Shown: one piece after another, positions 12,890-37,652 of the stretch | Position numbering within the stretch: position 1 is the stretch's first letter | Layout of the letters: each line of letters opens with the position of its first letter | Assembly: GCA_965248755.1 (NCBI GenBank) | Contig: OZ252149.1 | Coordinates: 3,008,001 to 3,072,000 of the forward strand | Length of the DNA: 64,000 nucleotides | Origin: Candidatus Latescibacterota bacterium | GTDB lineage: Bacteria; Latescibacterota; CBDEFO01 | Direction of reading: 5' to 3' | The notes under the pieces: model-generated | The model's input: the letters and a program-made list of their open reading frames with translations, nothing else | Told to the model about the DNA's origin: nothing | Database searches by the model: none | Position numbers and translations under genes: made by a program

Positions 12890-12934
12890 AATATAGGACA
12901 TGCAAAGGCCAAAGTCAAGCCGCAATCTTCCTAT
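12890..12934 (-). promoter_or_regulatory. Sigma70-type promoter of the primase unit with shared upstream motif
   Basis: Minus strand reads ATAGGAAGATTGCGG-C-TTGACT-N17-TATATT. Confidence 0.75.
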
Positions 12935-13156
12935 ATGGAGTGAGAAAGGTTTCTGCGCTCGTACGTGCGCGTGCGTTTGCTCAGTTTGGGTCAGTCCCAG
13001 CGCCAGCGGAAAGGTACTTGAGTCGGGCGAGTGATCCCTGATAGAAGCAGTCGGGGACGCCCCTGCGTTGTGTCTGCTCTCTTGACTTTTCCCCACGAAT
13101 TCATCATACTACCAGGTGGAATCAGGAAGGGGCGCCTACTTTGTAGGAGTTGAACA

Positions 13157-13498
13157 ATGCGTGATATCATAACAATATCCGTCCTTTTTACTGTGCTGGG
13201 GATGTTGCATCCATCAGGCCCATGTGCGGAGGAGATAACCAAACTGGATCTCCTGCAGATGGAAAACAGGCTGAAAGAGTATATAGATCTGAGGATTTCT
13301 TCTGTACACATCAGGATAGATGAAATGGACAAAAGGATTGGCTTAGTTCAGTGGATGATAGCCTTTCTTTTTATCATAATAGTAGTTATTCAGGGGATAC
13401 CTCAGTTTGCAACTTTCTACAGAGAGCGACGAGACACTTTGGAATTCAGTCACCGTCTGGATCAGATGGAGCAGAAATTAAGCAGTCTGGCACAATAG
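13157..13498 (+). CDS. Hypothetical coiled-coil membrane protein, opposite strand to the phage genes
   Basis: RBS AGGAG, N-terminal signal-like stretch, one TM helix. Flanked by a degenerate direct repeat of about 54 bp. Confidence 0.65.
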   Translation: MRDIITISVLFTVLGMLHPSGPCAEEITKLDLLQMENRLKEYIDLRISSVHIRIDEMDKRIGLVQWMIAFLFIIIVVIQGIPQFATFYRERRDTLEFSHRLDQMEQKLSSLAQ

Positions 13499-13609
13499 AA
13501 AGCAAAATTCCTGACTACCTCGTTTTGCCCATCGGGAGAGTGGTCCCCGATAGATTCAATCGGGGATCGCCCCTGCGTTGTGTCTGAAGTCCCAGCAACA
13601 TAGATAGTT

Positions 13610-13840
13610 TCATCTCAACCACCTCCCGAAGAAGGGCACAGTCGCCGAAAGCGCCTCTGCCAGTTCCTCTATGACTTCCTCCACTTCTTCCTGAGTCCAG
13701 CCGTCTTTTCTGTTGGCTCTTATGCTGGTTACCACATCCTCCCACTCCTTTGCAGCCTTCCTGGACCGCTTATACCAGACGGCGGCAAAGAGACCTATCC
13801 CTGTTACTGCGCCTCCGATTCCCATAATCCAGTCGAACAT
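13610..13840 (-). CDS. Small membrane protein of the lysis cassette
   Basis: N-terminal TM helix; translationally coupled to the upstream gene. Confidence 0.55.
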   Translation of the reverse strand: MFDWIMGIGGAVTGIGLFAAVWYKRSRKAAKEWEDVVTSIRANRKDGWTQEEVEEVIEELAEALSATVPFFGRWLR

Positions 13841-14082
13841 TATTTGTCACCTCCTAAAATGGATTTTAGCGCCATCATGACTCCTGCTGCTCCGCCTCCT
13901 GTTATTGACCCCCAGAGACCCGATTTGACCTTGAGTTGAGCGACATCCTCTTTCATCCCGATGATCATTCGATTATTCTCCTTCACATCACGGCTCACCG
14001 ATTCGATGTATTCGGTCAGATTGTCCAGCCGGGCTACAACTTCGCCCTCAAAGCGACCTCTTTGTCTGTCGTTATCATTCAC
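13840..14082 (-). CDS. Holin-like protein (coiled coil + C-terminal TM)
   Basis: XhlA-like layout, directly downstream of the amidase with an ATGA overlap. Confidence 0.55.
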   Translation of the reverse strand: MNDNDRQRGRFEGEVVARLDNLTEYIESVSRDVKENNRMIIGMKEDVAQLKVKSGLWGSITGGGAAGVMMALKSILGGDK

Positions 14083-14576
14083 TTTAAGAACCTCCCAAGT
14101 ATCTCTCTAATCTGATCCATCTCTATATCGGGGCACGTCTTACTGGTCGCAAAGTTCGGCTTGACCCTTCCGATCTCGTAGTGTCCTATCACGTTCTGGG
14201 GGCGAACGCCGAACTGTCTCATCCATCTCTGGGTCTGCCGGAGCGCAGTGCAGATCTGGTTGAGTGTGTAGTCTCCGCCCCTTCCTATAAGGCAGATGGA
14301 TATGGACTCTCTATTCAGACCGTAGGCATGAGCCTGCAGCTCATCTGCCTCCAGCTCCGAATCTTGATCCAGCGGCCTGCCCGTCTCCAGCATACCATCC
14401 AGATGGGCTGCGTATCGCCCTTCTTTTCTGTCCTGTGAGGTCAGATAACCGTTCAGGATGACGGCTCCGTAACCTACCCTTGACCAGCCTCTTTCTCTGT
14501 GCCAGCCATCTATTGTGATCGCCGATCCGAACGTTGAATCGCTGGCATGCCAGACTATGTATTCAGCTCGTGACAC
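14079..14576 (-). CDS. N-acetylmuramoyl-L-alanine amidase (Amidase_2, T7-lysozyme-like endolysin)
   Basis: YIVWHAS, IDGWHRERGW, AHAYGLN..SISICLIG, VIGHYE, KTCP. GTG start after RBS GGAGG. Confidence 0.88.
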   Translation of the reverse strand: MSRAEYIVWHASDSTFGSAITIDGWHRERGWSRVGYGAVILNGYLTSQDRKEGRYAAHLDGMLETGRPLDQDSELEADELQAHAYGLNRESISICLIGRGGDYTLNQICTALRQTQRWMRQFGVRPQNVIGHYEIGRVKPNFATSKTCPDIEMDQIREILGRFLK

Positions 14577-14769
14577 CTTGATTCTCCTCCAATTGACAGG
14601 GTGAATGCCCTTCTGATATTGTCCCGCAGGATGTGCACTCCCATATGCCCTTTTGGGGATCATATATCATGCCCTCGTAGCAAAAGGAGCAGACCCGCCG
14701 AGGCGGATCGTATCTGATGACTTCCTGTTTCTCCTTGTCCCATTCGGCTGTGAGTTTGATTTCAGACAT
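14563..14769 (-). CDS. Small Zn-ribbon protein
   Basis: CSFC...WECTSC motif; RBS GGAGG before MSEIK. Confidence 0.55.
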   Translation of the reverse strand: MSEIKLTAEWDKEKQEVIRYDPPRRVCSFCYEGMIYDPQKGIWECTSCGTISEGHSPCQLEENQGVTS

Positions 14770-14861: not shown

Positions 14862-15476
14862 TCATACTGTCCCATCCGTTGTGTACTCTATCTCCAGATC
14901 CAATAATCTAAACAGCCCCGTGTGAGTGTCGTTCGCGCTTGCCCCCTGACGCTCCAGCTTGATGGCTGCAATATCTGTCTTTGCTGAGAGTGCAGCAGCC
15001 GGAACGTTAAAGGTGCTGTCCTGTTCATACACATTGGCGCTGTCGTCAGGATTCAAGGTGTTGGCAGATGATGTCGGCGTTCCGAGCGATGAGTTCAGGC
15101 TCGTAACAGTCCGGGAAAAGGACAGTTCCACATTCCCGCTATGGGCTGTGGTCATAACGTATGATAGGACTACGGCTATAGGCTTGGTTATGTCGCAGTC
15201 GTGCGGGCATTCAAACGATGCCCTGATGGTATTCGTGGCAGTCGTAGAGAAGTCCAGCCCGGGATAATCTCCTGTAAGGGCTTCGGCGGGCGGATTCGTC
15301 CCATCCAGCCTGATTGCTCCCCAGAGCGATGCCCGCACCAAATTGCCGGCCTTCAGATTATCAATGTCTATATTGCCGTTGAACTCGGTGTAGATGACGT
15401 CAAAGTTGCGGTTTATGGCGTATGCGCTATTTGCGCCCAAATCTCTTATCTGGTAAGGCTTGGCAATGAATCCCAT
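14862..15476 (-). CDS. Putative tail / needle-associated structural protein
   Basis: Lies after the nozzle gene; N-terminal AINRNFDVIY anchor-like motif, beta-rich C-terminus. Confidence 0.55.
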   Translation of the reverse strand: MGFIAKPYQIRDLGANSAYAINRNFDVIYTEFNGNIDIDNLKAGNLVRASLWGAIRLDGTNPPAEALTGDYPGLDFSTTATNTIRASFECPHDCDITKPIAVVLSYVMTTAHSGNVELSFSRTVTSLNSSLGTPTSSANTLNPDDSANVYEQDSTFNVPAAALSAKTDIAAIKLERQGASANDTHTGLFRLLDLEIEYTTDGTV

Positions 15477-15595
15477 TATCTTATCCTCTGAATCGTTTCG
15501 AGTGCGCCTGTGGGACTAGATCCACAACAGATGAATGTAGGGGCGAGGTCTACTCGCCCATGGGCTGGGAGAATGGATGCTCTGTCTATTGTCTG

Positions 15596-17086
15596 CTATC
15601 CTCTGAATCCCCTTTCGTTTGCCACAATGGACAGTCCGCCGAGCGAAAAGTCTCGCTGTGAGGACTCTGTGATCTTAAACTGGATGTATCTGCCTGCCGC
15701 ACCGTCCAGCGGCACTCTGTGGACGCTTCTGGAGTTTACGCCCGAAAGAGAGTAGCTGCCTGTGGCTGTCGCGGCAAAATCTACGAACCACTCCACGGTC
15801 AACGTCACTCCGCTTGCGTGGGCGTCCTCCACGAAGATGTAGGAATATCTGAAAAGCTTGGTCGTGTCTGCACGCTTCAAATCGAAACTTTTGGTCTTTA
15901 TCGTTACGCTTATGTCTGCCGAGGGCGGATCGTTGAGTCCCGTATCGGCCTGTGAGACGAAGCCTGTTCCATCTCCTGTCCATACTATCTGTGACTCTAT
16001 CGGGATGCCCGACAGAAGCGGATCTGCAACGTAGGCAAGTGCGTTCCCCGTGATCCCTGTGAACTTCGTCCAGGCATTGTTGAGATAGTCGTAGACGAAA
16101 ATGATCGTATTATTCGAGCCCCCCGACGGCGTCAGAGCGATCCAGTATTGATTTCTCTTTCGGTTGTGGCAAGATGCGGCCCTGGAAAGACGCGTCAGAT
16201 TAAGGGGGGTCGGACTGTCAGGGCCAGACGAGACGAGGTCCTCGATCTTTTCGGAGATGTAGTTCACTCGTGTGCCCCGAAAGGCGTAGACTCCCCTTTC
16301 GCCGTAGAAGTAGAGGCTGTCAGGGCCAGATGAATCGTCCGTGATGTTCTGTATGGAGTTTTGCGCAAGGCATCCCACGTCAGACGTGATCTGGGATACC
16401 TTGAAGATCGAGCCCGAATCACCCGACAGCGTATATATAGAGTTGCGCTTGAAGATGACCAACTGATCAAAGAGGACAGCAAGTCCGCTGATTTGATCTC
16501 CATCGTCCGGATTTATATCTATGTGGTCGCCGGATGTCCATACCTCAGGATTGTTCACCTTGGAGTAGTAGAGCCTCGATGGATCGGTAGAATTCCCCGC
16601 CAGGAAGAGATAGTTGTTGAATAGCTTCAAAAACTTTCCTTTTGGAGGAGACCCTCCCAGATCGGCGAAGGTGGTGCCGTCGTATTTCTTGACGTTATCC
16701 GTCCCGTTGGTCAGAATCAAAAGGTCGGTAAAGGTCTCAAAGCCCCACGGCAGGCCGTTGGTCAAGCCCGTAGCAATAGAATCCAACTCCAGAGTCGAAG
16801 TGTTGTACTTGTAGACCTGTGTCCCCGCCGTGACGATAATCGCCCTTGTCCCATCTTTCTTAACGTAGTCGTAGATTCCGGTTATAGAGGCAGAGATAGA
16901 GGTCAAGTTTCGCCTTTCGTGCCCCTTTCTCTTGACCCATGCGCCGTGTGTGTCCAGGTGGATATTGTCCAACTGGACAGCGTCTTTGTCTGGAAACGAC
17001 CCGACAGACGCCTTACTGTTTAGGCCTCCCGTGTTGTCAACATACGGGATCTCGATGTAGCTCTTTTTCCTTTTAGACCTTGTCAT
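15596..17086 (-). CDS. Podovirus tail nozzle / DNA stabilisation protein (P22 gp10-like beta-propeller)
   Basis: GGLNS, LDNI..DTHGAWVKRKG, RLYYS, LVIFKRNSIY, DVGCLA and IFVYDY.NNAW motifs; follows the adaptor gene. Confidence 0.75.
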   Translation of the reverse strand: MTRSKRKKSYIEIPYVDNTGGLNSKASVGSFPDKDAVQLDNIHLDTHGAWVKRKGHERRNLTSISASITGIYDYVKKDGTRAIIVTAGTQVYKYNTSTLELDSIATGLTNGLPWGFETFTDLLILTNGTDNVKKYDGTTFADLGGSPPKGKFLKLFNNYLFLAGNSTDPSRLYYSKVNNPEVWTSGDHIDINPDDGDQISGLAVLFDQLVIFKRNSIYTLSGDSGSIFKVSQITSDVGCLAQNSIQNITDDSSGPDSLYFYGERGVYAFRGTRVNYISEKIEDLVSSGPDSPTPLNLTRLSRAASCHNRKRNQYWIALTPSGGSNNTIIFVYDYLNNAWTKFTGITGNALAYVADPLLSGIPIESQIVWTGDGTGFVSQADTGLNDPPSADISVTIKTKSFDLKRADTTKLFRYSYIFVEDAHASGVTLTVEWFVDFAATATGSYSLSGVNSRSVHRVPLDGAAGRYIQFKITESSQRDFSLGGLSIVANERGFRG

Positions 17087-17237
17087 TATTCTGCGTCCTC
17101 TCAAGTGGCAGGCAGTAAACAGGGGGGTTCACCCCGAAGCAATCTCGTTTTACAGTAGACAGATCGTAGGGGCGAGGTTCACTCGCCCAGGGGGCAGGGT
17201 TCGCCCTTGCCTTTCCCTGTCTACTGTCTACTGTCTT

Positions 17238-17342
17238 ACGACCCGACAGATGCCTTACTGTTTAGGCCTCCCGTGTTGTCAACATACGGGACCTCGATGT
17301 AGCTCTTTTTCCTTTTAGACGTTGTCATTATTCTACGTCCTC
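17238..17342 (-). pseudogene. Duplicated 5' stub of the nozzle gene
   Basis: Encodes MTTSKRKKSYIEVPYVDNTGGLNSKASVGS*, nearly identical to 16997-17101. Confidence 0.85.
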
Positions 17343-17700
17343 TATATGCAAGACCGCTATTGTAGGGGCAGCCCGGGTGTCTGCCCTGGGGACAGGGTTC
17401 GCCTTTGCGTTGCCCTGCCCCAATCGAACCCCCGTTGGTCATTGCGAGCGGAGCGAAGCAATCTCGTATGTGCTTCCTTTGTGAAAGAACCGAGATTGCT
17501 TCGGGGTGAACGCCTCTTGAGCAAGAGGAATGAACGCCCGATACAATCATTCGGGGGCAGGCCCCCTCGCAATGACTTAATGAAAGCAGTGTCATCGCCA
17601 GCATACGCAGAACCTTGTAGGGGCGAGGTTTACTCGCCCTGGGGGCAGGGTTCGCCCTTGCCTTTCCCTGTCTATTGTCTACTGTCTACTGTCTACTGTC

Positions 17701-18663
17701 TTACGTTCTGTCAAATAGAATGTTAGAGAATCCCCTCAGATGTCGTCCCTTCCTTCTCAGACCTACAGGCTTTACTCTGATGCCTCCATCGTAGTCTCTG
17801 GCGTCCTCCCAGACGAGGGTATTCAATTGGCTTTCGTACAGACTTTCTGCGTCTTCGGCGTAAGGGTCATCCAGCCATCTGTTGGCCGCTGCCAGCCCTT
17901 TAAGATAAAGCAGCCTGTGGTACTTGGCGGGCAGACCTGATGTATCGCTTGTCGAAGAAAGCTCCGAAAGGGTCTTGTAGTAGCGGTATGAAATCTGTAT
18001 TACCTCTCTGGGGTACGGATAGAACAGAGCCTGAAGCGCCCCATTTGAGTCTCTCACTTCACAGTAGATGCTCGGAATCCCAGACGTATTGGCATCCAGA
18101 TCGGGGACGGTCTGCTCCAGGTCCCTTATGTCCATCTTCTTTAAAGCAGGGAAGCTGTGTCCACCCAGAATGAGACTTGCCCCCGGCAGCTTCGTGTGAA
18201 CCATCTCCATTATCTCGTCCACATCAGAGGCAAGGCTGTACTCCCTCTGGAAGATGGAATAGCTCTTACCCGCTGCAGTCGTGCCGATATAGTTTGTGGT
18301 AAGCTCAAGTGATGTATCGTTCGTTATGGAACTTATGACGTAGGTACTATCGTCGCCATCTACTCTGAACCGGTCGCCTGCGTTTACGTTTGCCGAAAAG
18401 GCCGTCCCTGCGCCCGTTACTGTTGCATCACCGTTCGTCACGCTCACAGTACCGGCACTGTAGACGGCCTTCGTCTGAAAGACACCTGTCTTCTGCTGCC
18501 AGCGGTATCGCCTTCTGGAAAGCACATCCTCCTGCGCCCGATTGATCTGATCTATTATGACCCTGGTAAGCCCCAAGGGACTCCCTGGAATAGAGCCTAA
18601 AGTCGGCTCGTGGACCTCTGTGAGCACCTCATTTACCAGCGCTAGCAAAGTTCTGGATGGCAT
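17701..18663 (-). CDS. Head-tail adaptor (tail tubular A-like) with inserted beta domain
   Basis: TLLALVNEVL, INRAQEDV, REYSLASD, LFYPYP and LPAKYHRLL motifs; GTVSVTNGDATVTGAGT insert. Confidence 0.7.
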   Translation of the reverse strand: MPSRTLLALVNEVLTEVHEPTLGSIPGSPLGLTRVIIDQINRAQEDVLSRRRYRWQQKTGVFQTKAVYSAGTVSVTNGDATVTGAGTAFSANVNAGDRFRVDGDDSTYVISSITNDTSLELTTNYIGTTAAGKSYSIFQREYSLASDVDEIMEMVHTKLPGASLILGGHSFPALKKMDIRDLEQTVPDLDANTSGIPSIYCEVRDSNGALQALFYPYPREVIQISYRYYKTLSELSSTSDTSGLPAKYHRLLYLKGLAAANRWLDDPYAEDAESLYESQLNTLVWEDARDYDGGIRVKPVGLRRKGRHLRGFSNILFDRT

Positions 18664-18789
18664 ATTTTATTTCCTTAGTTTTTGGTAGTGGGTCAGACCC
18701 CCCTTTAATTTCCCTCTTACCAAGGGGGGATACAGGGGCGTTCCTGTCTGACATCCTTAGGGGGCAGCCCTCGCCCCTACATTCTTGAT

Positions 18790-19059
18790 CTACGCATAAT
18801 GCACAAAGACAGACGGGCTCGTGCCCGTCAAAGTCGCATAGACACCGATGTCAATTCTGATTCCCTCTGGGAAAGAGACGTTCACCGTAGTGTTCGCGGA
18901 TGCCTTAAGCGTCACTATCGGATTACCGCTGCCTGCTGTATTGTCATATAGAGCCGCCGAAGCAGCATCAGCGCCAGCAGTCAGCGTGGCCCCTTGTACA
19001 TTGGCAAGGCCTGTAGTAACCTGCCCTGAGGTCGTTCTTTCTTTAGTAAATCCTGCCAT
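18790..19059 (-). CDS. Small phage structural protein
   Basis: Beta-rich, 89 aa, ending FPEGIRIDIGVYATL; lies between head and adaptor genes. Confidence 0.55.
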   Translation of the reverse strand: MAGFTKERTTSGQVTTGLANVQGATLTAGADAASAALYDNTAGSGNPIVTLKASANTTVNVSFPEGIRIDIGVYATLTGTSPSVFVHYA

Positions 19060-19260
19060 ATTCTATCACCTTTTTGTTTATGGTAGACAGTAGATAGAGA
19101 CAGATGGCACGACCAAAACGGGTCGCAAAAGGGGGCCGACCACAGCGGGTCGGCTAAGAGGGCCGACCAAAACGGGTCGGCTAAGGGGGTCCTCCTACCT
19201 ACTGTTCTACTGTAGGCCTCCTGTCTACTGTTCTACTGTCTACTTGTTTCCCCTATACTA

Positions 19261-20220
19261 CTATGCTGCAGTAGGATCGATTTTAGCGCCGCCTGCCGCG
19301 TCTCCGACGTAGTTTTCGACTACCTGCTCAGGGTGCCTGTCCTGAGTGACTGCAGTCGCCGAGCAGTTGGCAAAGTAGTTTCTGGCTATGACTCCCAATG
19401 GGGAGTTTGCCTCTGCCGCCTCAAAGGTGATTCCCACTTCATCACCGGCGTCAGTTGCGCCCAGGAAGAAGTTATCTACTATGAACGCACCGTATCTGGT
19501 CGTCGCATTTGTCCTGGTGGGCACAGTTATCGCAGTATCCCCGTCGTCCATCATAAAGAAACAGTCCTTTATGATCGGCCTTGTCGAATCCCAGACGATG
19601 TCAGCGCCGTCAAATCCGGGAGCAAAAAAGCACCGCTCGATTATACACTCGCCGGCGTCGTTTGTACCATCTCCCAGACGTATTCCGTTGCCTCCTGCCT
19701 GTTCGTTCCATCCTGCAATAAACATGTCGTGAAGATACGTATAGTTGGTCGCTGCTGTGTCTGCGATATCAATGATACCGTGGAGAGCTTGAGCGCTTAC
19801 ACCGATCCTGAAGAACCCTATTTCTACATTATCAGCCTCTACTGCCAATAGTTCATTGACATTACCGCTTGGCCCGTTCAACGATGGACAGCCGTACCCG
19901 TAGGGCGCGGGCGGATAGCCCAGAAGCCGGATATCGTCCTTATCGATAGTAAGAACACCACCGGGCGTATGCGTCCCCCGCAAAAGAACGATCGTATCCC
20001 CTCTTCCTGAAACACACGAATCGAGGGCTTTCTGGACGGTGGCCAAGGGAGTTAAAGGGCTTGCCCCATCGTTATTGTCAGAAGGACCTTTGCCCTCCGG
20101 ATGGGCTACATGCCCTGTGGTAGGCGCTACAAAGAATGTCTTACCTGTAAGAGAGGAATAGTAACTATTCCCCCCGATGATAGCGTCAACGCTTAATACA
20201 CCGAAATTTGTCAATCCCAT
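19261..20220 (-). CDS. Right-handed beta-helix (pectin-lyase-fold) virion protein
   Basis: GPSDNNDGASPLTPLATVQKALD..GRGDTIVL N-terminal signature and repeated I.(E/D)(R/C/N).F rungs. Confidence 0.7.
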   Translation of the reverse strand: MGLTNFGVLSVDAIIGGNSYYSSLTGKTFFVAPTTGHVAHPEGKGPSDNNDGASPLTPLATVQKALDSCVSGRGDTIVLLRGTHTPGGVLTIDKDDIRLLGYPPAPYGYGCPSLNGPSGNVNELLAVEADNVEIGFFRIGVSAQALHGIIDIADTAATNYTYLHDMFIAGWNEQAGGNGIRLGDGTNDAGECIIERCFFAPGFDGADIVWDSTRPIIKDCFFMMDDGDTAITVPTRTNATTRYGAFIVDNFFLGATDAGDEVGITFEAAEANSPLGVIARNYFANCSATAVTQDRHPEQVVENYVGDAAGGAKIDPTAA

Positions 20221-20637
20221 CAATTCTCCTCCTTATGCTTAAGTAAGTAGTATACACAATGTAGGGGCGAGGTCATCTCGCCCGCAGTAGGCAGGGAGGG
20301 GATGAGGTGCTTCCTGCCCCCGACTTGATCGGGGGTTACCCCGCCTAACGTGTGTTTCCGTAGGGTCGAGAGCACTTCGTGCCTTTCTGTCTCTGCTCCC
20401 CAGCAAGGCTCCGTGCCCCCATCCTTGGAGATTGCTTCGGCCCGATTGAGCCATTCGGGGAGAGGCCCGATAGATGCAATCGGGGGCGCTCGCAATGACG
20501 TTACTTAGTTTGGGTCATTGCGAGGAGATTCTTCCCTGTTGATCAAGAGGGGCTTCACCCCGAAGCAATCTCGGTTACAATAGACACGATGTAGGGGCGA
20601 GGTCCACTCGCCCCCTTGCCTTACCTGTCTACTGTTT

Positions 20638-21540
20638 TTATGCTCCTGGAGATCCGAAGACGCCCCTGAAGTCGCTCCATCCCACGCCAAAGCGCATAGT
20701 GCCCTTTATCTTCAGATCGCCTGTATCGAAGTCCTCACCCGGCGTCACGGTAAACCTCTTCCTCCAGAAGAAATTCAGTTCGTGATCGTCCTTTTCGCCT
20801 ACTAAGAACCAGGCGTCAGGGTCGGTCAGATAGTGCCACACAAATGGCCGTAAGCTTAACATCTGAAAGGCGTTTTCAGCGTTATTTGCCGTATCGGGAC
20901 GGCCCGAAGACTTCAAAAGCTCGAAGGTGTCCCACTCTGACTCGTTAGGCACGACTAAAAGTCTCGGCTTTACGGCCATCTTCAGCCCTGCGTCATCTGT
21001 AAAGTCCTCAAAGTCGTTTATCGCCTGACGAAGCGACGTGACGGAAAGGTCGGCGTCGGTTGAGAGCTTGTTCTGCTCGGTGCCGCCTGCCTTTACAAGC
21101 GGGTGGTCTGTCGCAAATAGTGGCTTAGCGTCAGCGCCGGGGTAGCTTGTGTTGAAGCCGTTATTGAAGACATCGGCGGTGACGATCTCGACAGTCTGAG
21201 CCGCAGACCTTCCTAATGCCCTTGCCATCCGCCTCATAGGGCTGTAGAAGTCGTCCTCTCTCATCTCCTCTGATACCCTGAAACCGAGTCCGTAGGTAAC
21301 ATGAGTGTATCGCTTTTTGAACCCCTGAACAGGGTCATCGTAGCTGATCGCCTCACCTTCGTCCTTTGTGGAGAAGAGCCCCAATCCGCTGACCGAAGCG
21401 TCCTCCTCGTACTGACTGTCCGAGGAGTGGACGTTGAATATGAAAGAGTATTCCTCTGGATAGGACTTATACTTATTGAAGATGACCTTCCTCAATCCAG
21501 CGGCTAACAGAAACTCGAAGTTTGGCGAAATTGATGCCAT
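20638..21540 (-). CDS. Major capsid protein (Mu gpT-like family)
   Basis: KDEGEAISYD, RYTHVTYGLGFRVSEE, GADAKPLFATDHP, HYLTDPDAWF, DFDTGDLKIK..RFGVGWSDFRGVFGSPGA. Confidence 0.88.
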   Translation of the reverse strand: MASISPNFEFLLAAGLRKVIFNKYKSYPEEYSFIFNVHSSDSQYEEDASVSGLGLFSTKDEGEAISYDDPVQGFKKRYTHVTYGLGFRVSEEMREDDFYSPMRRMARALGRSAAQTVEIVTADVFNNGFNTSYPGADAKPLFATDHPLVKAGGTEQNKLSTDADLSVTSLRQAINDFEDFTDDAGLKMAVKPRLLVVPNESEWDTFELLKSSGRPDTANNAENAFQMLSLRPFVWHYLTDPDAWFLVGEKDDHELNFFWRKRFTVTPGEDFDTGDLKIKGTMRFGVGWSDFRGVFGSPGA

Positions 21541-24410: not shown

Positions 24411-24424
24411 CGCATCCTCCTTGT

Positions 24425-26935: not shown

Positions 26936-26961
26936 AGAAAAAAAATAGCGAGTGCGTTTAG

Positions 26962-28321: not shown

Positions 28322-28358
28322 AGTTTTGTAGAGCAAAGGGACTGGATAGCTGGGTTTG

Positions 28359-28461
28359 ATTGAAAAAAGTACTTGTTGATAAATATAGAAGTGATAATAT
28401 TAATTCACTAATAAGATTGTATCGAAATATAATCCCTTATGAATGTGATATGGGGAATGTC
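28359..28461 (+). mobile_element. Remnant of an IS1380 right end
   Basis: About 100 bp closely similar to 1852-1954, including ATATGGGGAATGTC. Confidence 0.8.
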
Positions 28462-28645
28462 AAATTAATACTCTCTTCGAGGTATTGTACTTTGTTTTCA
28501 ATTTGAAAAAAGCCAAAAAAGCTTGGATGTTTTCTCTATCTCAGGTAACTATAGTATGACAGTGATATTAAGTTCTCATAGTATTTCTAGAATGATTGAT
28601 AAATACTAAATAGTTGTGAATTATATATTATATCATCAAAAAGGC

Positions 28646-28675
28646 TTGACAAAAGGGTTGGAATTGTAGTATAAT
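28646..28675 (+). promoter_or_regulatory. Consensus sigma70 promoter for the cargo operon
   Basis: TTGACA-N18-TATAAT upstream of 28774. Confidence 0.65.
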
Positions 28676-28773
28676 GTTAGCGATTACAGATGTGATCGAG
28701 AAGTCGTATATAATCTAGTAGAGGAAAAAGGATTTCTTATGAATTAGTAACCCTATAAAAGAAGGAGGGTTCG

Positions 28774-29442
28774 ATGATTCGCAAAATTTATTTCATAGGA
28801 TTATTGATGCTGGTAATGTTTCTTGGAGTAGTGCAGGGAGATGAATTGCCGGTGTTGGGTTTATATGAAGGTGATAACTTAGTATTTCTTTCAGTAGTAA
28901 ATGAGGGTGAATTGACTTTAAAGAGGGTTGGGGTGGAAGTAAGAGCGAAAGATCTACCCGAGTGGGTTCAGATCGGAGAACTAGTGAAGCGGATAGATAT
29001 ACCTAAAAGGTCTACTGGAACAGAAAAGCTGATGATTCCCATGTATGTGGAGGGAACAGTGGTGGGTGAAGCCTTCGAGCTACCAATAGTGTTGAGCGCT
29101 GAAGATGGCCGTACGTGGACGTTTGAGGTGTTGGTAGAGATTAAAAAGGCTCGTCCAAAGTCCTTCGCGCTTATGCAGAACGCACCTAATCCGTTCAATC
29201 CAGTCACATTGATTCAGTACACATTGGGAGGGAATCAAACTGTTCCCACGCAATTGAATATATTCAACATTATGGGGCAGAAGATACGGACATTGGTCAA
29301 TGAGCCCCAGGCGCCAGATTATTACTCCGTCATATGGAATGGCTTGGATGATCACGAACAAAAGGTCGCCACCGGAGTGTATTTCTTCAAACTAGCTGCA
29401 GGAAAATTTGTGAAGACAAGGAAAATGGTTTTGCTAAAATAA
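28774..29442 (+). CDS. Secreted protein with FlgD-Ig / T9SS-type C-terminal domain
   Basis: Signal peptide; FALMQNAPNPFNPVT.I.Y..IFNIMGQKIRTL..WNGLD..TGVYFFKL..TRKMVLLK. Confidence 0.85.
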   Translation: MIRKIYFIGLLMLVMFLGVVQGDELPVLGLYEGDNLVFLSVVNEGELTLKRVGVEVRAKDLPEWVQIGELVKRIDIPKRSTGTEKLMIPMYVEGTVVGEAFELPIVLSAEDGRTWTFEVLVEIKKARPKSFALMQNAPNPFNPVTLIQYTLGGNQTVPTQLNIFNIMGQKIRTLVNEPQAPDYYSVIWNGLDDHEQKVATGVYFFKLAAGKFVKTRKMVLLK

Positions 29443-31440
29443 ATGAAAAGGAGGATTAGCATGGATTGGAAGATCAGTATAGTAGCTTTGGCGCTTGCAC
29501 TTTCGTTCCCTTTTTCAGCCTGGTCCGATGTTGTAGGAACAACTTACTCCACCATTTTGGTTGAAGATCCAAAGATTACTTTAAATGGGGATTTAGCAGA
29601 CTGGGAGAAGATAGGGTTAGAGCCAGTCAATATTGAACATTTCTGGTTTGGACCCACAACAGATGCGGCAGACATTTCGGGAAACTTCCGGACTTTTGTG
29701 AGTAGGGATCACCTATATATAGGGGTTAAGGTAAGCGACGACCTGGTGTGCTCAGGCACTACATGGGGCAGAAAATGGTTTCAGGATGATGTCGTGCAGA
29801 TATCTTTTAATGGGGATCTGGACGCTGACAAGATACCGGTGTTTGAGATATGGGAGAAGGACTATTTCGATCTCAACGACGGGGAGATACAGATTGTGGC
29901 GGACGCACCGGGAAAGGTTCATCTGGAAGGTTCAGGAGTCTTTTTCTATCCCGTGACAGATCCCTACGATCAGGAGATTCCGTATACATGGGAGCTTTTA
30001 GGAGTAGAGGCAGTAGTTAAGCGTACAGATACAGGATATATAGTTGAAATGCGTATACCTAAAGAAGTATTAGGTGTGGAGCAATTCGTTCAAGGAACCC
30101 AGATCGGTTTGAATGTGCGAATTATAGATGATGATGATGGGGGAGAACATGACAATGTTTTAAGTTGGACTAGAGAAAAGGAAACCGAGGGTACGATACC
30201 CTATGGGATAGTACAGGTAGAAGCAGTTCCAGCGGCTTCCGAGTTGGTAGATTTAGTTGTTGGGGAGGTGAAAGTAGAAGAAGGTTCACAAGAGCTGTTG
30301 GTGACTATGGAGCCGCAGGAGAGCTCAGAAGTGCACGCTATTTCTGCTCTTATCTCCGAAGGAAAGGTAACTGAAGCTCAGGCCAAATTGGAGGAATGGG
30401 TCGAGATCCGTAAGGAAGATACGCAAAGAAGACGGGCGGTGTACCTTCTGGGGAGATTTTACTGGCAGTCTGGACAGTATCAGAAAGTGATTCAGACAAT
30501 GGAAAAACTTGTGCATCTTTCATCATCAGAGATTGTAAGATGCCAGGCTCTACAGGTGATGGCTAATGCGTATGATGCCTTGGGGGAATATCAAAAAGCT
30601 ATTACGAGTTGTGAGCAGATACTCAATATTGTAGACTCAGGTTCATATGTGGCAAAGTATGCGACCGTAGAAATGGGGCTATATAAGATCAAACTGGGAG
30701 AATATGAGCAAGGCTTGCGGATGTATGAAGAGGCCTGGAAGGAAAGAGAAGGTTCTCGACTATTAGCGTTTGGAGCTGCTTATCAAGGACAGGGTATATA
30801 TAAGGATGCCATTGCCCAATATGAGAGTGATGTCGTACAAACAGTGCATCCCAGGATCAAACTGGTAGGACTTGAGCAAGTGGCGAAGATGTATGAAGAG
30901 TCTTGGGAGGTTTTGGAGCGTAGAAAAGATTCCCCTGGGCAAAGCTGGGTATCAATTCTAATGGCTTTAGTGTACGTTTATGAACAACAAGGAAGACATA
31001 GGGAGGCCATTGCCCAATATCAGAAAGTAATGGAGCTATATCCCAACCTTGAAGCATTGGCTCAATATTCGATAGGCCACAATTACTGGTTACTGTTTGA
31101 AGTTGATCGTGCTATCGTGGAGTTCGAAAAGGTACTGGATAATTATGCTGACGTTATTTCTAAAGAGTACCTTGCTAATACACAAAATTTCTTGGAACAA
31201 CTCTATGCTATTAGAAGAAATTATCCCGGAGAGGAATGGAGGGTAGTCGGAGAAGCTTTGGATATGGTGAATGCTGGCAGATATGAGGAAGCTGCAACCA
31301 TATATAAAGATCTCCTTGACCATGTTCATGAGGGCCTCAATGGCCGACTCATTCGCAATGTAGCTGATATGTTCCGCAAACGGGGAGTGTTTAAGGAAGT
31401 CTTCTCCGAATTCCTGGAATTGCAGGGAATTGAACAGTAA
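29443..31440 (+). CDS. Secreted CBM9/DOMON-like sugar-binding domain + TPR protein
   Basis: ITLNGDLADW..LYIGVKVSDD..GYIVEMRIP..IGLNVRIIDDD followed by multiple TPRs. Confidence 0.8.
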   Translation: MKRRISMDWKISIVALALALSFPFSAWSDVVGTTYSTILVEDPKITLNGDLADWEKIGLEPVNIEHFWFGPTTDAADISGNFRTFVSRDHLYIGVKVSDDLVCSGTTWGRKWFQDDVVQISFNGDLDADKIPVFEIWEKDYFDLNDGEIQIVADAPGKVHLEGSGVFFYPVTDPYDQEIPYTWELLGVEAVVKRTDTGYIVEMRIPKEVLGVEQFVQGTQIGLNVRIIDDDDGGEHDNVLSWTREKETEGTIPYGIVQVEAVPAASELVDLVVGEVKVEEGSQELLVTMEPQESSEVHAISALISEGKVTEAQAKLEEWVEIRKEDTQRRRAVYLLGRFYWQSGQYQKVIQTMEKLVHLSSSEIVRCQALQVMANAYDALGEYQKAITSCEQILNIVDSGSYVAKYATVEMGLYKIKLGEYEQGLRMYEEAWKEREGSRLLAFGAAYQGQGIYKDAIAQYESDVVQTVHPRIKLVGLEQVAKMYEESWEVLERRKDSPGQSWVSILMALVYVYEQQGRHREAIAQYQKVMELYPNLEALAQYSIGHNYWLLFEVDRAIVEFEKVLDNYADVISKEYLANTQNFLEQLYAIRRNYPGEEWRVVGEALDMVNAGRYEEAATIYKDLLDHVHEGLNGRLIRNVADMFRKRGVFKEVFSEFLELQGIEQ

Positions 31441-31569
31441 GACTAACAATTATATTGGGTTAGATTCCCGGCAGAAGAGAAGAGTATTGTCTTTATGAAC
31501 CACAAGTCCATATTGAGCAGAACACCATAAGGTTGGTAACCTTTAAGTGGTATGGGAAGGGAGATAAAG

Positions 31570-32088
31570 ATGAAGCCAAGAGAAATTATAATTCTGTTTG
31601 TCATGTTAATAGTAACAGCGTTTTTGGGGAGCAGTACTTATGCCTGGCATGACAATATTCATGCGTTACAGGGTCAGTATACGAATAGGGGTATAAAAGT
31701 GCCAGATGCTAGTAAATTCTGTTCTACTTGTAGTGCTACATTTTTCAATTCTAATGAGATTAACAGTAACGACGGTAATCCCGACTTCTACTATGATGCA
31801 ACTTTCTGGAGCGATATGGACTATGCCCGTGTGCTGAACGGGCAGGTTGATCTAAATAGTGCTTACAGAACTCCAGACCATGATATTGATGAGGGTGGGG
31901 TGCTAAACAGTCTCCATCAATATGGTAATGGCGCAGATGTAGGCGCAGTAAATGGAAAGGCTTGGAGTGCAATGTCCGGTGATGAAAGGGATGACTTCAA
32001 AAATTCGTTCGATTCAACTTATGAATTTACTGAATATGAAAACAACAGCCATCTTCATGTAGAACGGGGTGGATATTGCGATTATTAA
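31570..32088 (+). CDS. Secreted peptidase M15A-like (Hedgehog/DD-peptidase fold) protein
   Basis: SAYRTPDH..GGVLNSLHQYGNGADV..HLHV resembles the M15A SxH..AxD..HxH signature; signal peptide present. Confidence 0.65.
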   Translation: MKPREIIILFVMLIVTAFLGSSTYAWHDNIHALQGQYTNRGIKVPDASKFCSTCSATFFNSNEINSNDGNPDFYYDATFWSDMDYARVLNGQVDLNSAYRTPDHDIDEGGVLNSLHQYGNGADVGAVNGKAWSAMSGDERDDFKNSFDSTYEFTEYENNSHLHVERGGYCDY

Positions 32089-32201
32089 ACTGATGGAACT
32101 GCATATACGCCGAGGCGTCTGGGTAATTAGAAGATTCACGCACAGCTATTCCATTTCAGAGTTCTTATAGTAAGTTCAACGATACTTGAAAGGAGCACAA
32201 G

Positions 32202-33029
32202 ATGGGACAAAAACTCTCCCTACCACTATCATTCTTTGTAGGTGTCACTTTGGTTCTTTACACTATTCTTTGGATACCTATTAATGTGAATGCGTCCACC
32301 TTGCCTGATCTGAAGGGTTGGACTTTTTCAGATGATGATGCTCAAATCATCAAGTATGCTGATATGCATTCTGCAAGTGCTGTGCTTAGTAAATTGTACA
32401 CGCTTTTCATAAAAGAAGGTAAAGAAGCGGTGATAGAATCTGTACCCGCGTTAGTATATAGATTCCATGAGCTAAGAAAGATACCGCCGGAAAAGCATGG
32501 AGGCGAAGGTCAAGGAGAATTTGAGGGGTCGATTATAGATTTCTTGGGCAGATTAGGCGATGAGCGCTCCAAATCCGCTCTGCTAGAATCAATGGAGTAT
32601 CACTGTCGAGCAGCAGTCAAAGGACTGTTAGCTATTGGACACTCGGTAGTTCCAGACATTATCAATTTAATAGGTAGCCCTCGAGTGAGAATGAAAAAGG
32701 GAGCCATAGAAACCCTTCGTCAGATGGGTAAGTTGGATCCCACTTTTTTCACTAAAGATGAACGAGATAAAATCAGGAACAGACTTGTAGCGCTCTTGGA
32801 GAATGAGAACGTCAAGCCCGGTGAGAATTACAGTTTTAAAGTTGTCTTGGCCTTAGACGTCTTTGGTGATCTTTCCACAATCCCTATTCTGGAAAAGATA
32901 GCGGAGCAGGATTCATTCATTAATTATGGTAGATACCCAACAAGGATCGCAGCACAGAAGGCAATAGAAGAGATAAAAGTTGCGCAGCAATCAAAAAACG
33001 TGATACCGAGCCCTGTGAATTCTGAGTAA
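32202..33029 (+). CDS. Exported HEAT-repeat protein
   Basis: Signal peptide; LGRLGDERSKSALL and ALDVFGDLSTIPILE repeats. Confidence 0.7.
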   Translation: MGQKLSLPLSFFVGVTLVLYTILWIPINVNASTLPDLKGWTFSDDDAQIIKYADMHSASAVLSKLYTLFIKEGKEAVIESVPALVYRFHELRKIPPEKHGGEGQGEFEGSIIDFLGRLGDERSKSALLESMEYHCRAAVKGLLAIGHSVVPDIINLIGSPRVRMKKGAIETLRQMGKLDPTFFTKDERDKIRNRLVALLENENVKPGENYSFKVVLALDVFGDLSTIPILEKIAEQDSFINYGRYPTRIAAQKAIEEIKVAQQSKNVIPSPVNSE

Positions 33030-33307
33030 TATATGTATGGGTTCCATATTTCCAGATCGAGGTGGTATGATTTGGAATATTTATGAAATCGATGGCAGTA
33101 TGTCAAATGTTTTGAAGAAGTGCATGATCGCCTCCTTCATTGACATATCTACTATCACAGCTCAATTTCTTTAAGTAAACCACCATTACTAAACCACATT
33201 CTGTTCCGCTTTCCCAAGTTTATCTGCAAGAGAAATTACTTCGTTTCTGACAACTGCAGCCTTTTTAAGGCTGAAATCTGTGAAATCACTCAAAGTCCTT
33301 CAGAATC

Positions 33308-33513
33308 CTATATATCATCCAAACTCCTAATTTCCCTCACATATTCAGCCCCACACTTCACCAGCATATCTTTGATCAGGAAACGATGGCAGAACAAATC
33401 TGCCCGGCAATAGCAGACAAGCATCACCTCTTCCATGTTGAGGACCTTATCCCACCTTTGACTGTTGTACTGATTACTCTCCTGCATCAAAAAGAATATT
33501 GGCGAGTGTATTC
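33308..33513 (-). pseudogene. DUF488-like C-terminal fragment next to IS3
   Basis: WDKVL..VMLVCYCRADLFCHRFLI motif; frameshifted at its 5' end. Confidence 0.5.
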
Positions 33514-34779
33514 TGTACTGCCCCCCTGGAAAGCGACACCGATTAAGCAACTTGGGGTAGCAGATATTATTGTTTTCTCCATTCTTGCAGGGTCTTGTAT
33601 CCCAGGGATGAATGAAGCCTGTTCTTGTTGTAATTATCGATCCACTGAGATATGATCTTCTCAGCCTGTTCAAAGGATTCAAACTTGTGAAGCCAAACAC
33701 ACTCTTGCTTGAGGGTCCTGAAAAAACGCTCTACAACACCGTTCCAATCGGGTTTACCACTTGGTATGTATTCCTGACGAATTCCCCAATATTCGGTACT
33801 GGCCAAATAGGCCCGAGCCAAAAAGATGGAACCATTGTCAGAGCGCAAAGTGAGACCCTGGGGGACAGCCTCCTTGGAAGTGTATCGAGAGATCACGGCC
33901 CGATCCAGGGCATCTGTGGCCTCCAGTGCCCTCCCTTTTCGACTAAAACGATACCCAGGAACCTCCCGGCTTCCGTTGTCCACCACCGCAATAAGAGGAC
34001 ACCAACCATCTTTTCCACAGTAAATCTTTGTCAAGTCACTCGACCACAAACTGTCGGGACTATCCACCACAGAACGCTTCTGGGCAACCTGTGGCCCCTT
34101 TCTCCCGGGACGATTCCACAGCTTACACTGCCACCCCTTAAGCTTCATTATCCTATGAACCTTCTTAACGTTGACACATTCCCCTTCCTTGAAACGAAGA
34201 TGCGCCCAAACCCGCCTGTGACCAAATGCCTCTTCTTGGTCCAGTATCCCTCGAATACGAAAAGCAAGCTCCTCATCTATCACAGGCTCTTTAACAGAAG
34301 AACTGACACCTCTATCCCTAAACCTATACAGAGTCGAACGATGCAAACCCAAAGCCAAAGCTACCACCTTGCGGGAATAGCCTCGACCCAAAAACCGCCC
34401 ACTCAAGGCAACCGCTTCGTTTTTTTTAGACGGGCTACCTCTTCGAGTATCTCCAACTGGAGCGTCAACTGCCCTACCTTGCGCTCCAACCGGCTAACCT
34501 CTCGCTCCTTCGGATCCTTGCGACCACGCCGAGACTTCAGACTCTCCTGGCCCCCTTCTAAGAAACTATCACGCCAAGCATACGCCTGCGACTGGCTAAT
34601 TCCATTCTTACGACACACCTCAGATAGATCTGCTCCTCTCAAAAGAGCCAACACAATCTCTCCCTTACGGGTCGCCGTCCAGCGCTTACCATCTTTCACT
34701 TCGGGGCTCGACACCTTGACCTCCCTTCTCAAACCCCAATTTGCGAAATATTTGTCGCTCTGTCAAGGGGAGCGGTATG
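33514..34779 (-). mobile_element. IS3-family element, copy 2 (orfA 34403-34732, orfB 33567-34406)
   Basis: Identical to copy 1 except the last ~85 bp; 4-bp target duplication ATTC. Confidence 0.92.
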
Positions 34780-34974
34780 ATTCATCCTTAAACGTCTTGT
34801 GAGTCTTCCTGCCTGCTGCCCTGTCTGATGCCAGAGGCAAAACAACTATAAGTGCAAACGCTATGATTAGTGCCATTGTAACAATGTTAATCAATCGAAA
34901 CATGAGTCTCTCCTTCCGTGTATTGAAGGTAGCTTAATGATACTAAATATTTAACCCCAAATATACAAAAGAAA

Positions 34975-35391
34975 ATGACGGATGCTAATTTAGAAAATTT
35001 AGAGGGTGAGAAGTTCACCTTATCGCAGATGAAAGGGAAAGTAGTGCTCTTCGACCTCTGGGCGACATGGTGCGGTCCCTGCATAGACGCCATTCCGGAA
35101 ATCCAGAACGTTCACGACCACTTCAGCTTCGCAGATGATGTGATAATCTGGGGCATAAACAGCGGAGAACATCCCGATAAGGTGGGGGCGTTTATGGAGG
35201 AGCACAAGCCCCCCTGGCCTATTTTGCTCAACCAAAAGCGCGAAGTCAACAAAGCCTATGGCATCAGTGGCATACCGACCTTTATCCTGATAGATAAAGC
35301 CGGACGCTGGCAGCACACTCGTATAGGCTACAGCGAGTGGCTCGGTCAGGAATTGATCTGGTTGATTGAAGCCCTTCGGGCAGCGGATTAA
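34975..35391 (+). CDS. TlpA/ResA-like thioredoxin domain, probably a truncated C-terminal part
   Basis: KGKVVLFDLWATWCGPC..YGISGIPTFILIDKAG; no signal peptide. Confidence 0.8.
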   Translation: MTDANLENLEGEKFTLSQMKGKVVLFDLWATWCGPCIDAIPEIQNVHDHFSFADDVIIWGINSGEHPDKVGAFMEEHKPPWPILLNQKREVNKAYGISGIPTFILIDKAGRWQHTRIGYSEWLGQELIWLIEALRAAD

Positions 35392-35600
35392 GCTTCCTTG
35401 ATTTGGTGTCGATACCGCCACACAGTGTCATTTGTTTTTCAGTAGGCAAGATGAGTATTGAATGAACGTCGCACTGAGCTTGGGAATCTCTCAAAGCTGA
35501 AGCCGAGCACCGTCATTGCGACCTCCGATTGACTCTATCGGGGGCAACGAACCAATCTCAAGGGATGGGGGGATGTATCACCTGTCTACTGTCCACTTGT

Positions 35601-37163
35601 TTAGTATCCTGTGATCCTGTTTCGGGTCAACGCTTGTCGTCTTCCAGCAGTTGTTCTCCCGACCCGCGGCGCTCGCATCACAGGTGCGGTCTTGAGCATC
35701 TGCAGGGCAATAGCCTGAGCGATCACTCTATCATCGTAGCATCCTTCCTGCGCACCCATACCGCCAGTCTCATCTCTCACAAATGTAAACATCTCTTCCA
35801 CGGTCTCCCTGCTGTTCAAGGTAACACCCTCATCTCTTAATGATCCCGCAAGTTCATCGATCATTAAGGGCTTAGTTCTGGCGTTAGTCAGCCATCCTAA
35901 TTTTCGTGAATACCTTGACGGTGAGCCTTTAGTTTCCCTGTCCACTGTCTGGCGGTAATAGACATTGGGATAGCCAAGGTAGCGCTTAAGCGTAACCAAA
36001 GTAGTCAACCCGTGGCCATTTGCCTCCACACCTACAAAGGCATCGTTGTAGAACCTCCCCAGCTTAAAAAGTTCGGTCCCGAAAAGATCAGGATCGGTAT
36101 GGCCGTGCCATTCAGCCACCTGCTCCCCCGTATCTCTTCTGACCACTTGAGCGGACGAGTAATCGCCCTTTTCGAGTCCCTCTGATACATCGGCGCCGAT
36201 CACGTACAGAGCGCCACTCTGCGGAGGCTCCCATATCTTTATTGGCCCATCTTTGGAATGTTCCAGGACGGGCCCAGAATGCGTGTCCGCACGCGCAGGT
36301 AGATCGGACGGTCTGAACCCTTCGGAAGAAATCGTGTCCATATGTAGAAAGCCTCTCGTCAAACAATCCTTACAACCGTCTAACGACACCCTCAGGAGGG
36401 CGGTATCGAACACACATCTTCCACTTATGGAGACAAAGCGCCCCCTGACCCTTATCTCCTTCTCCTCTTCTGAATAGTTCCGTTCCACCCGTTCTATTTC
36501 TTCTTTGGGGATGTAAGGATTATCGTTGAGTGCCGCGGAGAATATCGCTATATCAGGGTCAGAGCTATTTTTGTATATGTGCCTATAAAACCAGGTGAAT
36601 CCCTTCAGGGGCGTCATAGTCCCCCAGATTTCACCCTTTACGTCAACTGTTCTCATAAAACACTCGCGATAGATATCTTCAGGCGGCTCTTCATCGAACC
36701 ATATCCAGTGTCTTGTTACGCCCTGGAATTTATCCCTTCCGGAGTCACACGACTTAAAGCCTATTTCTGACCCATTTTTGAGTTTGATAATCCGGTCGGT
36801 TCTGTTCCAGACATCTATCTGGGATTCGGGCAGATATTTTCTGATCTTTTGCTCTGCGACATCCCTTGATGAAGAAAAGTCAGACGAGACGATCCATCCG
36901 AAATTTGGGACTGGGATATTTCGCTGGGGAGTGAAGCGGTGCTTCCCCAAAGCGAACATAACCACCTCTACAGCGCCAGCCTCTGTCTTCCCAGCTCTAT
37001 TTCCTGCGATAAACCAACGATTGCGCTTGGTAGATCTGTGAAATAGCCTCTGCTTTGGATGAGGCTCATACTTGGACAGAGCAGACGGAAGCCATTCGGC
37101 CTGCCGTTCGAGTTCATCAATTACAGCCTCAACTTTCTGATTGTAGCGCTTCTTTGAGTTCAT
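35601..37163 (-). CDS. terL: Terminase large subunit
   Basis: PHPKQ, Walker A AGNRAGKT, Walker B IWFDEEP, TMTP, nuclease YVIGADVSEG..GDYS and YDDRVIA. Confidence 0.93.
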   Translation of the reverse strand: MNSKKRYNQKVEAVIDELERQAEWLPSALSKYEPHPKQRLFHRSTKRNRWFIAGNRAGKTEAGAVEVVMFALGKHRFTPQRNIPVPNFGWIVSSDFSSSRDVAEQKIRKYLPESQIDVWNRTDRIIKLKNGSEIGFKSCDSGRDKFQGVTRHWIWFDEEPPEDIYRECFMRTVDVKGEIWGTMTPLKGFTWFYRHIYKNSSDPDIAIFSAALNDNPYIPKEEIERVERNYSEEEKEIRVRGRFVSISGRCVFDTALLRVSLDGCKDCLTRGFLHMDTISSEGFRPSDLPARADTHSGPVLEHSKDGPIKIWEPPQSGALYVIGADVSEGLEKGDYSSAQVVRRDTGEQVAEWHGHTDPDLFGTELFKLGRFYNDAFVGVEANGHGLTTLVTLKRYLGYPNVYYRQTVDRETKGSPSRYSRKLGWLTNARTKPLMIDELAGSLRDEGVTLNSRETVEEMFTFVRDETGGMGAQEGCYDDRVIAQAIALQMLKTAPVMRAPRVGRTTAGRRQALTRNRITGY

Positions 37164-37536
37164 CGATCTTTCCTTCGATCAGGTCCTCAAGTTCACTTCT
37201 GATCAATCTCTGCTTATCCTCTCCGCTGCTTACTTCCTCTACCTTTTTATCCTTAATCTCACTTAGTATCTTATGATAAAGACTCAGAGCAGTCATATTC
37301 CCCTCATCCATCTGCTCTTGTAATCTCATAACGAACTTGAACTCCAAAGACCTTAGGTACTGCTCCGTAAGGCCCTGCTCGAAATCCACAAAGGCGCTGT
37401 CCCTTTGCCATTGGTTATAAAGCGTTATGCTGACCTTTGCCTTCTTAAGCGCCTTTGACCTATCTCCTTGGACATCTGCATCCATCAGCGCCTCAAAGTA
37501 GGCCTTTTGCTTTTGATCCGCTTCAAAATCGGACAT
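37129..37536 (-). CDS. terS: Putative terminase small subunit
   Basis: HTH-like ALKKAKVSITLYNQW..DSAF; EGNMTA; overlaps the terL start. Confidence 0.7.
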   Translation of the reverse strand: MSDFEADQKQKAYFEALMDADVQGDRSKALKKAKVSITLYNQWQRDSAFVDFEQGLTEQYLRSLEFKFVMRLQEQMDEGNMTALSLYHKILSEIKDKKVEEVSSGEDKQRLIRSELEDLIEGKIDELKEALQSES

Positions 37537-37584
37537 AGTACCTTCCTTACTAAACAACAGTGCACTATTTACCGGACAGACATA

Positions 37585-37652
37585 AATATAAAACAAACCC
37601 TGTGGTTAGTCAAACCGCAGGGTTCGCTATCTTCCGCTATCTTCCTATTTGG
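37585..37652 (-). promoter_or_regulatory. Promoter of the terS-terL unit
   Basis: Minus strand: ATAGGAAGATAGCGGAAGATAGCGAACCCTGCGGT-TTGACT-N17-TATATT. Confidence 0.8.

Follow-up and report, generated by a model that had tools for sequence, protein, structure and literature searches.

A candidate promoter-operator cassette, probably phage-derived, copied within a split cryptic prophage of a Latescibacterota bacterium

Phage P1 is described as carrying 22 dispersed, asymmetric 17-bp C1 operators (PMC8546580), the sites of recombination directionality factors (RDFs) as direct repeats one turn apart, with Apl repressing promoters (PMC7498355), and BldC, a member of the HTH_17 group of helix-turn-helix (HTH) proteins, as binding 9-bp direct repeats head-to-tail (PMC11963761). 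A criterion given for gene transfer agents (GTAs) is a small terminase (TerS) without a DNA-binding domain (PMC11841831). Here we analyze a 64,000-nt window from Candidatus Latescibacterota bacterium (assembly GCA_965248755.1, contig OZ252149.1, positions 3,008,001 to 3,072,000 of the forward strand), in which a cassette of ~65 bp, composed of direct repeats at 10-bp pitch abutting an ordinary sigma70 promoter and homologous between copies, stands on the minus strand ahead of the primase, portal, and terS genes of a phage-derived locus. The explanation that we favor, with a probability of about one half, is that a phage-derived promoter-operator has been copied before these three genes of a split cryptic prophage, where it is likely repressed by one HTH_17 protein. 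Title and full-text literature searches, with most subscription papers and all supplements outside their coverage, found no paper on this Latescibacterota system.

The cassette and its copies

At all three sites the minus strand reads TGCGG(C/T) immediately 5' of TTGACT, a 17-nt spacer, and TATATT, exactly as a preliminary description of this DNA had claimed. The -35 hexamers lie at 12918-12913 (primase), 26896-26891 (portal), and 37613-37608 (terS), the -10 hexamers end at 12890, 26868, and 37585, respectively, and each promoter is followed after 40-130 nt by an ATG that has a purine-rich ribosome site. The full cassette, present before terS (37585..37659, minus strand) and before portal (26868..26942, minus strand), has GGAAGAT at -32 and -22 and TGCGG at -6, counted from the -35 hexamer, with related units at ~10-bp pitch continuing up to that hexamer; the portal copy is a duplicate of the terS copy (82% identity over 77 nt). 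These two copies bear out the 10-bp spacing of GGAAGAT that had been reported for two of the sites. The primase cassette (12890..12955, minus strand) is a collapsed form; it is 19 bp shorter than the full form preceding a paralogous primase elsewhere in the genome (position 1887697), to which it aligns and with which it has a common leader. Its box TGCGG and the TGCGG adjacent to the -35 hexamer are the same letters, and it keeps one GGAAGAT, at -13 rather than at -32 and -22.

The promoter part of the cassette is ordinary. It matches the sigma70 consensus at 10 of 12 positions and gives the best minus-strand sites in the scanned regions (with one tie), and TTGAC(T/A/G/C)-N17-TATATT occurs 42, 81, 11, and 6 times, respectively, in the genome (140 in total). 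The host promoters of ssrA (42858) and cca (44551), and that at 59721, do read TTGACA-N17-TATATT without the box, as stated previously, but with 42 TTGACT sites genome-wide the TTGACT hexamer does not serve as a distinguishing mark. The special part of the sites is the upstream 36-40 nt only. A 15-mer of the box is found three times in the window versus 0.0006 expected, and four times in the 4.54-Mb genome versus 0.04 expected, under a third-order Markov model and for a motif picked post hoc. No hairpin is common to the copies, no terminator was called at the three sites, and an Rfam scan of the window returned the tmRNA and no other known RNA element.

Six copies of the cassette are present in this genome, the three beyond the window being at genome positions 1887697 (plus strand), 628397 (plus strand), and 2616070 (minus strand); three of the six have GGAAGAT at both -32 and -22, and the other three have a single repeat. 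A matrix built from four copies scored a fifth at 41 bits, the next site at 20, and the collapsed primase copy at 17. Among 371 promoter-like sites, TGCGGN stands directly before the -35 hexamer in six, all of which are the cassettes, and GGAAGAT occurs within 50 bp of seven (five cassettes and two others; ~2.5 expected). The copy at 1887697 precedes the paralogous primase, which is interrupted by an insertion sequence (IS) and whose flanking genes have no match in a sister species, also of the Latescibacterota (G001). The copy at 628397 precedes a gene for a secreted M6-peptidase-like protein and that at 2616070 a short patatin-like open reading frame (ORF); in both cases the DNA 60-200 bp upstream is a relic of a phage-type replication gene, matching the repeat region of its longer copy (genome 3621320-3622489), the patatin and replication-gene labels being readings of the sequence only. 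Both of these host-like genes carry the cassette in both species. The sister species has five copies, of which the extra one precedes a lambda-O-like gene whose counterpart in this genome has no cassette. Every copy thus adjoins phage-derived DNA, and both host-gene copies follow what we read as relics of phage replication genes.

A genome-wide matrix scan for further regulon members had been suggested. The scan yielded these six copies, with no conserved host gene set among the carriers, and we see no host regulon built on the cassette. Within the phylum, the cassette pattern was found in 2 of 168 genomes, namely this one and the sister species, and in none of the 166 others bar one two-mismatch hit without promoter context; neither viral nor metagenome contigs, nor a set of 196 related viral loci (partly redundant), gave a full cassette match. 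SOS genes had been named among the possible members. LexA is the only S24 protein of the genome, and no CI-type S24 repressor is encoded. The lexA promoter contains GAAC-N4-GTTC between its -35 and -10 hexamers in both species, and this site (genome 3706749) is the only exact match in the scanned sigma70-like promoter windows; the box is like that of the Firmicutes. None of the six cassettes contains it, even at one mismatch, and we regard control of the cassettes by LexA as excluded.

Half-sites at genome positions 4152723 (within a coding gene), 4107405, and 2964455 (before purC) are without the rest of the cassette and were taken as chance. A downstream motif, AATAGTG(C/T)ACT, occurs at three sites in this genome and is altered in the sister species at terS and portal; it was not relied on. 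Two NADH dehydrogenase-like genes at genome ~4107k have between them a small coiled-coil ORF, which is preceded by a 20-bp tandem repeat.

The split late operon and its counterpart in the sister species

The packaging genes comprise terS (37129..37536, minus strand; PF13022, E 4.6e-7; phrog_24579, E 2e-4), which begins at an ATG with a ribosome-binding site at 37536 and keeps an HTH-type domain, and terL, the large terminase gene (35601..37163, minus strand; PF03237, phrog_2). The SU10-type portal gene (24922..26787, minus strand; PF23899, E 2e-48) lies 8.8 kb from terL, and the gap is occupied by host-like cargo (26990..35500) including lipoprotein, FlgD-Ig, CBM9-TPR, M15, HEAT, IS, and thioredoxin genes. 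The cargo has a GC content of 0.44, compared to 0.51 for the structural block. In the sister species the gap is 6.8 kb and holds mostly different genes, with only a 323-aa lipoprotein common to both. Among the related viral loci, terL and portal were both matched in 40 of 196; in all 40 portal comes after terL on the same strand, and the gap has a median of ~0.6 kb (at most 2.5 kb in 36 loci and above 5 kb in two). In both species the portal gene is preceded by its own copy of the terS promoter. We conclude from this arrangement that terL and portal belonged to one ancestral podovirus late operon, which was split between them, the portal promoter being a copy of the terS promoter. The three modules of the preliminary description are, on this evidence, not independently wired: their promoters are homologous duplicates, and two of them derive from the same operon.

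Downstream of portal are the genes for the major capsid protein (20638..21540, minus strand; PF25209), whose relatives are 45-65% identical, many of them on 30-50-kb contigs, and a block of virion genes, unassigned virion ORFs included (14862..20223, minus strand), with many repeats resembling repetitive extragenic palindromes (REP-like repeats) between genes. The block includes an adaptor (17701-18663, minus strand) and a nozzle-like protein (15596-17104, minus strand), its family basis being PF24175 and phrog_3287. An amidase endolysin gene and two small ORFs follow (13610..14663, minus strand; PF01510), the latter with a putative holin or spanin role suggested by position and sequence. Two copies of the 5' end of the nozzle-like gene (16996-17101 and 17238-17343; 106 nt, 96%) lie around REP-like repeats, a duplication that the sister species is without. 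In-frame repeat modules also occur inside the primase gene (11841-11934 and 12224-12247) and a scaffold-like ORF (23907-23933). A single-sequence fold of the ORF at 14862-15476 had a predicted local distance difference test (pLDDT) score of 36, too low for use.

The sister species carries the locus between the same flanks, which shows vertical inheritance at one site in the two species. The ratio of nonsynonymous to synonymous change (pN/pS), pooled without the primase (mosaic, dS 0.33, different origin), is 0.225 for 18 phage genes and 0.220 for six flanking or cargo host-like genes, with similar pS (Fisher p 0.71 for the difference). The phage genes thus show purifying selection of host level, which acted after the operon was split. 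While all the main ORFs are open in this genome, the sister species has a TAG in capsid (codon 259), a premature TAG in portal, and a broken frame in the scaffold-like ORF. Residue 258 is also the last of a database protein that differs from the sister capsid by one residue, an agreement that speaks against a sequencing error there. Contigs of three other studies resemble the sister species in their indels. Recoding of the TAG codons was considered; the corresponding codons here are TGG and CAG, specifying two different residues, and plain nonsense changes are likelier. The best reading of these features is a cryptic prophage that is now decaying in one lineage, the locus having recently become dispensable in that of the sister species.

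The replication unit, the candidate repressor, and alternative readings

The primase-helicase gene (10415..12754, minus strand; Prim-Pol/PriCT-1/D5 type, 779 aa from the ATG; PF09250, PF08708, PF08706) is followed directly 3' of its stop codon by opposed repeats around an AT-rich core, a predicted iteron origin (10309..10414, minus strand) with three TGAA(G/C)C repeats and three inverted repeats (fold z -2.4). Next is the gene for a 61-aa, excisionase-like HTH_17 protein (10073..10258, minus strand; PF12728, E 1e-12; phrog_2907), which is intact in the sister species (93%) and is our candidate binder of the cassette repeats; a PDB sequence search with this protein gave no match. We interpret primase, origin, and HTH_17 gene as a unit resembling those of Staphylococcus aureus pathogenicity islands (SaPIs). 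A frameshifted second HTH gene copy (6735..6955, minus strand) and the first flank ~3 kb of cargo missing from the sister species.

Relatives of this unit are scattered through both genomes. At least nine HTH gene relics are present in this genome (at ~58k, 112k, 285k, 1893k, 3012k, 3015k, 3085k, 3589k, and 4187k), and several in the sister species; most come with a C-terminal piece of the primase and an origin. Iteron repeats differ among those that were aligned, and homology extends no further than the HTH stop codon, after which a REP-like module usually follows. This pattern suggests that a family of replicons, able to swap origin specificity, invaded repeatedly. Tandem HTH copies in the window (4208-4293, 6735-6955, and 10071-10271) flank cargo such as an AlbA/RecG-like gene and an NHL/TIG protein, and the block 6957-10071 is missing from the sister species, as if circles integrated via recombination at the HTH gene. 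An island resembling phage-inducible chromosomal islands (PICIs; genome 3934247-3942262) encodes an integrase, a primase paralog, and HTH genes and has neither cassette nor REP-like repeats. In the sister species, an inverted primase fragment from residue 626 lies directly before the terS cassette (G001:C6:441370-441513), and other primase fragments in both genomes also begin at residue 626.

In the explanation that we favor, the cassettes would be promoters controlled by repression, since their hexamers equal the housekeeping consensus of the genome and the portal promoter points at lysis genes. The most likely repressor would be the excisionase-like HTH_17 protein, which could oligomerize head-to-tail along the repeats, from -32 through -22 in the direction of -6, and so block polymerase; its gene ends the primase unit and would thereby close a negative feedback loop. 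The portal copy would have kept the head, tail, and lysis genes expressible once cargo split the late operon. If it did so, the locus is a concrete trace of prophage rewiring during domestication, by way of one duplicated promoter-operator and with no new regulators gained. Cassette and HTH_17 protein moreover form a defined site/protein pair for a simple binding and reporter test. Unless it makes particles, the locus would be a cryptic prophage whose genes share an operator, and for that there is precedent. Of the co-regulation proposed in the preliminary description, the shared cis-element at replication, head, and packaging genes holds, with a single factor acting on it being a fair inference; stable co-regulation of replication does not, as the sister species has no cassette before its primase.

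Several observations weigh against this explanation. The feedback loop is not shared by the sister species, which keeps the HTH gene without a primase cassette. Most other HTH gene copies in this genome are broken, and the presence of other HTH_17 genes (13 matches) leaves room for a different binder. In both species the -35 hexamer of the copy at 2616070 is degenerate, and the sister copy before the peptidase gene reads TGAGG. Between species, the terS cassette has one difference in the 36-nt box and none in the -35 hexamer, spacer, or -10 hexamer, and the portal cassette has two differences in its 36 box positions and four in its 17 spacer positions, with intact hexamers; over four orthologous pairs, 5 of 144 box, 5 of 68 spacer, and 14 of 124 downstream positions differ. 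Conservation of the box is high, yet not clearly above that of the neighboring non-coding DNA. Finally, the phage origin of the cassette is suggested by its context, no free virus carrying it having been found.

A possible but doubtful alternative is that the locus encodes a working, Bartonella-like GTA, in which the cassette would turn on terminase, head, and lysis genes along with run-off replication from the primase origin, host DNA being carried in the particles. The structural genes are a single-copy set in the genome, separately promoted and, after the split, under purifying selection of host level; an intact primase and predicted origin stand beside the head genes; the main ORFs are open in this genome; and REP-like repeats are dense at the locus (22.6 per 10 kb versus 2.3 genome-wide). 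No tyrosine or serine recombinase match was found within ~300 kb, no att site was found, and no CI-type gene is nearby. These points are countered by the lesions of the sister species, including a capsid stop matched by the database protein, and its lack of a primase cassette; by the confinement of the locus to two of the 168 phylum genomes, both of one genus, although the set has no other genus of that family; and by the HTH domain (PF13022) that TerS keeps, unlike known GTA TerS proteins. Beyond the capsid gene the ORFs reach at most 502 aa, while an ORF of at least 550 aa stands there in 16 of 22 related viral loci, a weak hint that ejection proteins may be missing. Of the features by which GTAs are recognized, the locus has no integrase or phage repressor and shows vertical inheritance under purifying selection (two species, one site); it does not have wide intact conservation or a TerS without a DNA-binding domain. 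We consider just as tentative the specific version in which a podovirus-built Latescibacterota GTA, independent of known GTAs, would have its SaPI-type run-off origin, terminase, and head-tail-lysis units on one copy-pasted promoter-operator, with the Xis-like protein as master regulator and a secreted host peptidase captured by the same cassette. If that were true, the two sister species would show the system working and being lost.

It is rather improbable that recombination between short homologous cassettes produced the copies as a by-product, in the manner of the promoter(early) stem-loop elements (PeSLs) of T4-like phages, with the repeats unread and co-regulation incidental. Spacer and flank sequence common to the copies, the gain or loss at the primase and O-like genes between two close species, the abundance of replication-gene relics, and the unremarkable conservation of the box relative to its flanks would all be consistent with it. 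However, the register of repeats, -35, and -10 is preserved in all copies, each of which is directed into an ORF, the O-like copy of the sister species retains the box despite an unrelated spacer, and an unrepressed consensus promoter ahead of lysis genes would likely be costly.

Very unlikely, in our view, is the possibility that the repeats are pac-like sites bound by TerS, which would repress the promoters, while scattered copies would start packaging at several chromosome positions. TerS autorepression at pac occurs in SPP1, TerS keeps its HTH domain here, and the terS cassette, the most highly conserved of the copies, carries an inverted repeat about its -35 hexamer (fold z -2.3). That inverted repeat was not found in the portal (z -0.15) or primase (z -0.40) copies, and copies before replication genes better fit a role in transcription. 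We give hardly any credence to a host global regulator, LexA or a response regulator, reading the box and holding the modules in a host regulon: OmpR/PhoB-type regulators also use direct repeats at 10-11 bp and two host-like genes have the cassette in both species, but both of those copies follow phage replication relics, the LexA box is different, GGAAGAT is near no more non-cassette promoters than expected (2 of 371), and the 166 other phylum genomes have no cassette.

Comparison with known systems

With our favored explanation in mind, a cryptic prophage with a copied promoter-operator, the locus can be set beside several systems. As with the P1 C1 operators, an asymmetric element stands beside several promoters and would serve one repressor; unlike in P1, the whole promoter is duplicated together with tandem repeats, the setting is a chromosomal relic, and no C1/CI-type gene was found. 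The direct repeats about one helical turn apart at promoters resemble the sites of the RDF and HTH_17 binders 186 Apl (PMC7498355), BldC and RdfS (PMC11963761), and D29 Gp36 (PMC12266134), and here too a small HTH_17 protein is encoded in the locus, its binding being predicted; in contrast to the RDF systems, no integrase or att site was found at the locus. Like the PeSL cassettes of T4-type phages (PMC2839356), the element is a short, repeated sigma70 cassette at module borders that is gained or lost between close relatives, but it has no shared terminator stem-loop, and its copies stand before core genes and on a bacterial chromosome.

The Bartonella GTA (BaGTA) with its run-off replication (ROR) unit (10.1101/2024.11.20.624540, PMC11841831) likewise has a phage-derived replication unit and origin beside capsid, packaging, and lysis genes, which are separately promoted from a consensus sigma70 promoter. 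There the loci are coupled by the antiterminator BrrG and kept across the genus, whereas here a copied cassette is common to genes of podovirus type, TerS has retained its HTH domain, and the locus is broken in the sister species. Finally, the pri-rep-ori arrangement of SaPIs and PICIs (PMC9371898) likewise has a fused primase-helicase gene followed at once by opposed iterons that surround an AT-rich core. The unit described here differs in that no integrase was found, the HTH gene lies downstream, and the unit is joined to a full head-gene set.

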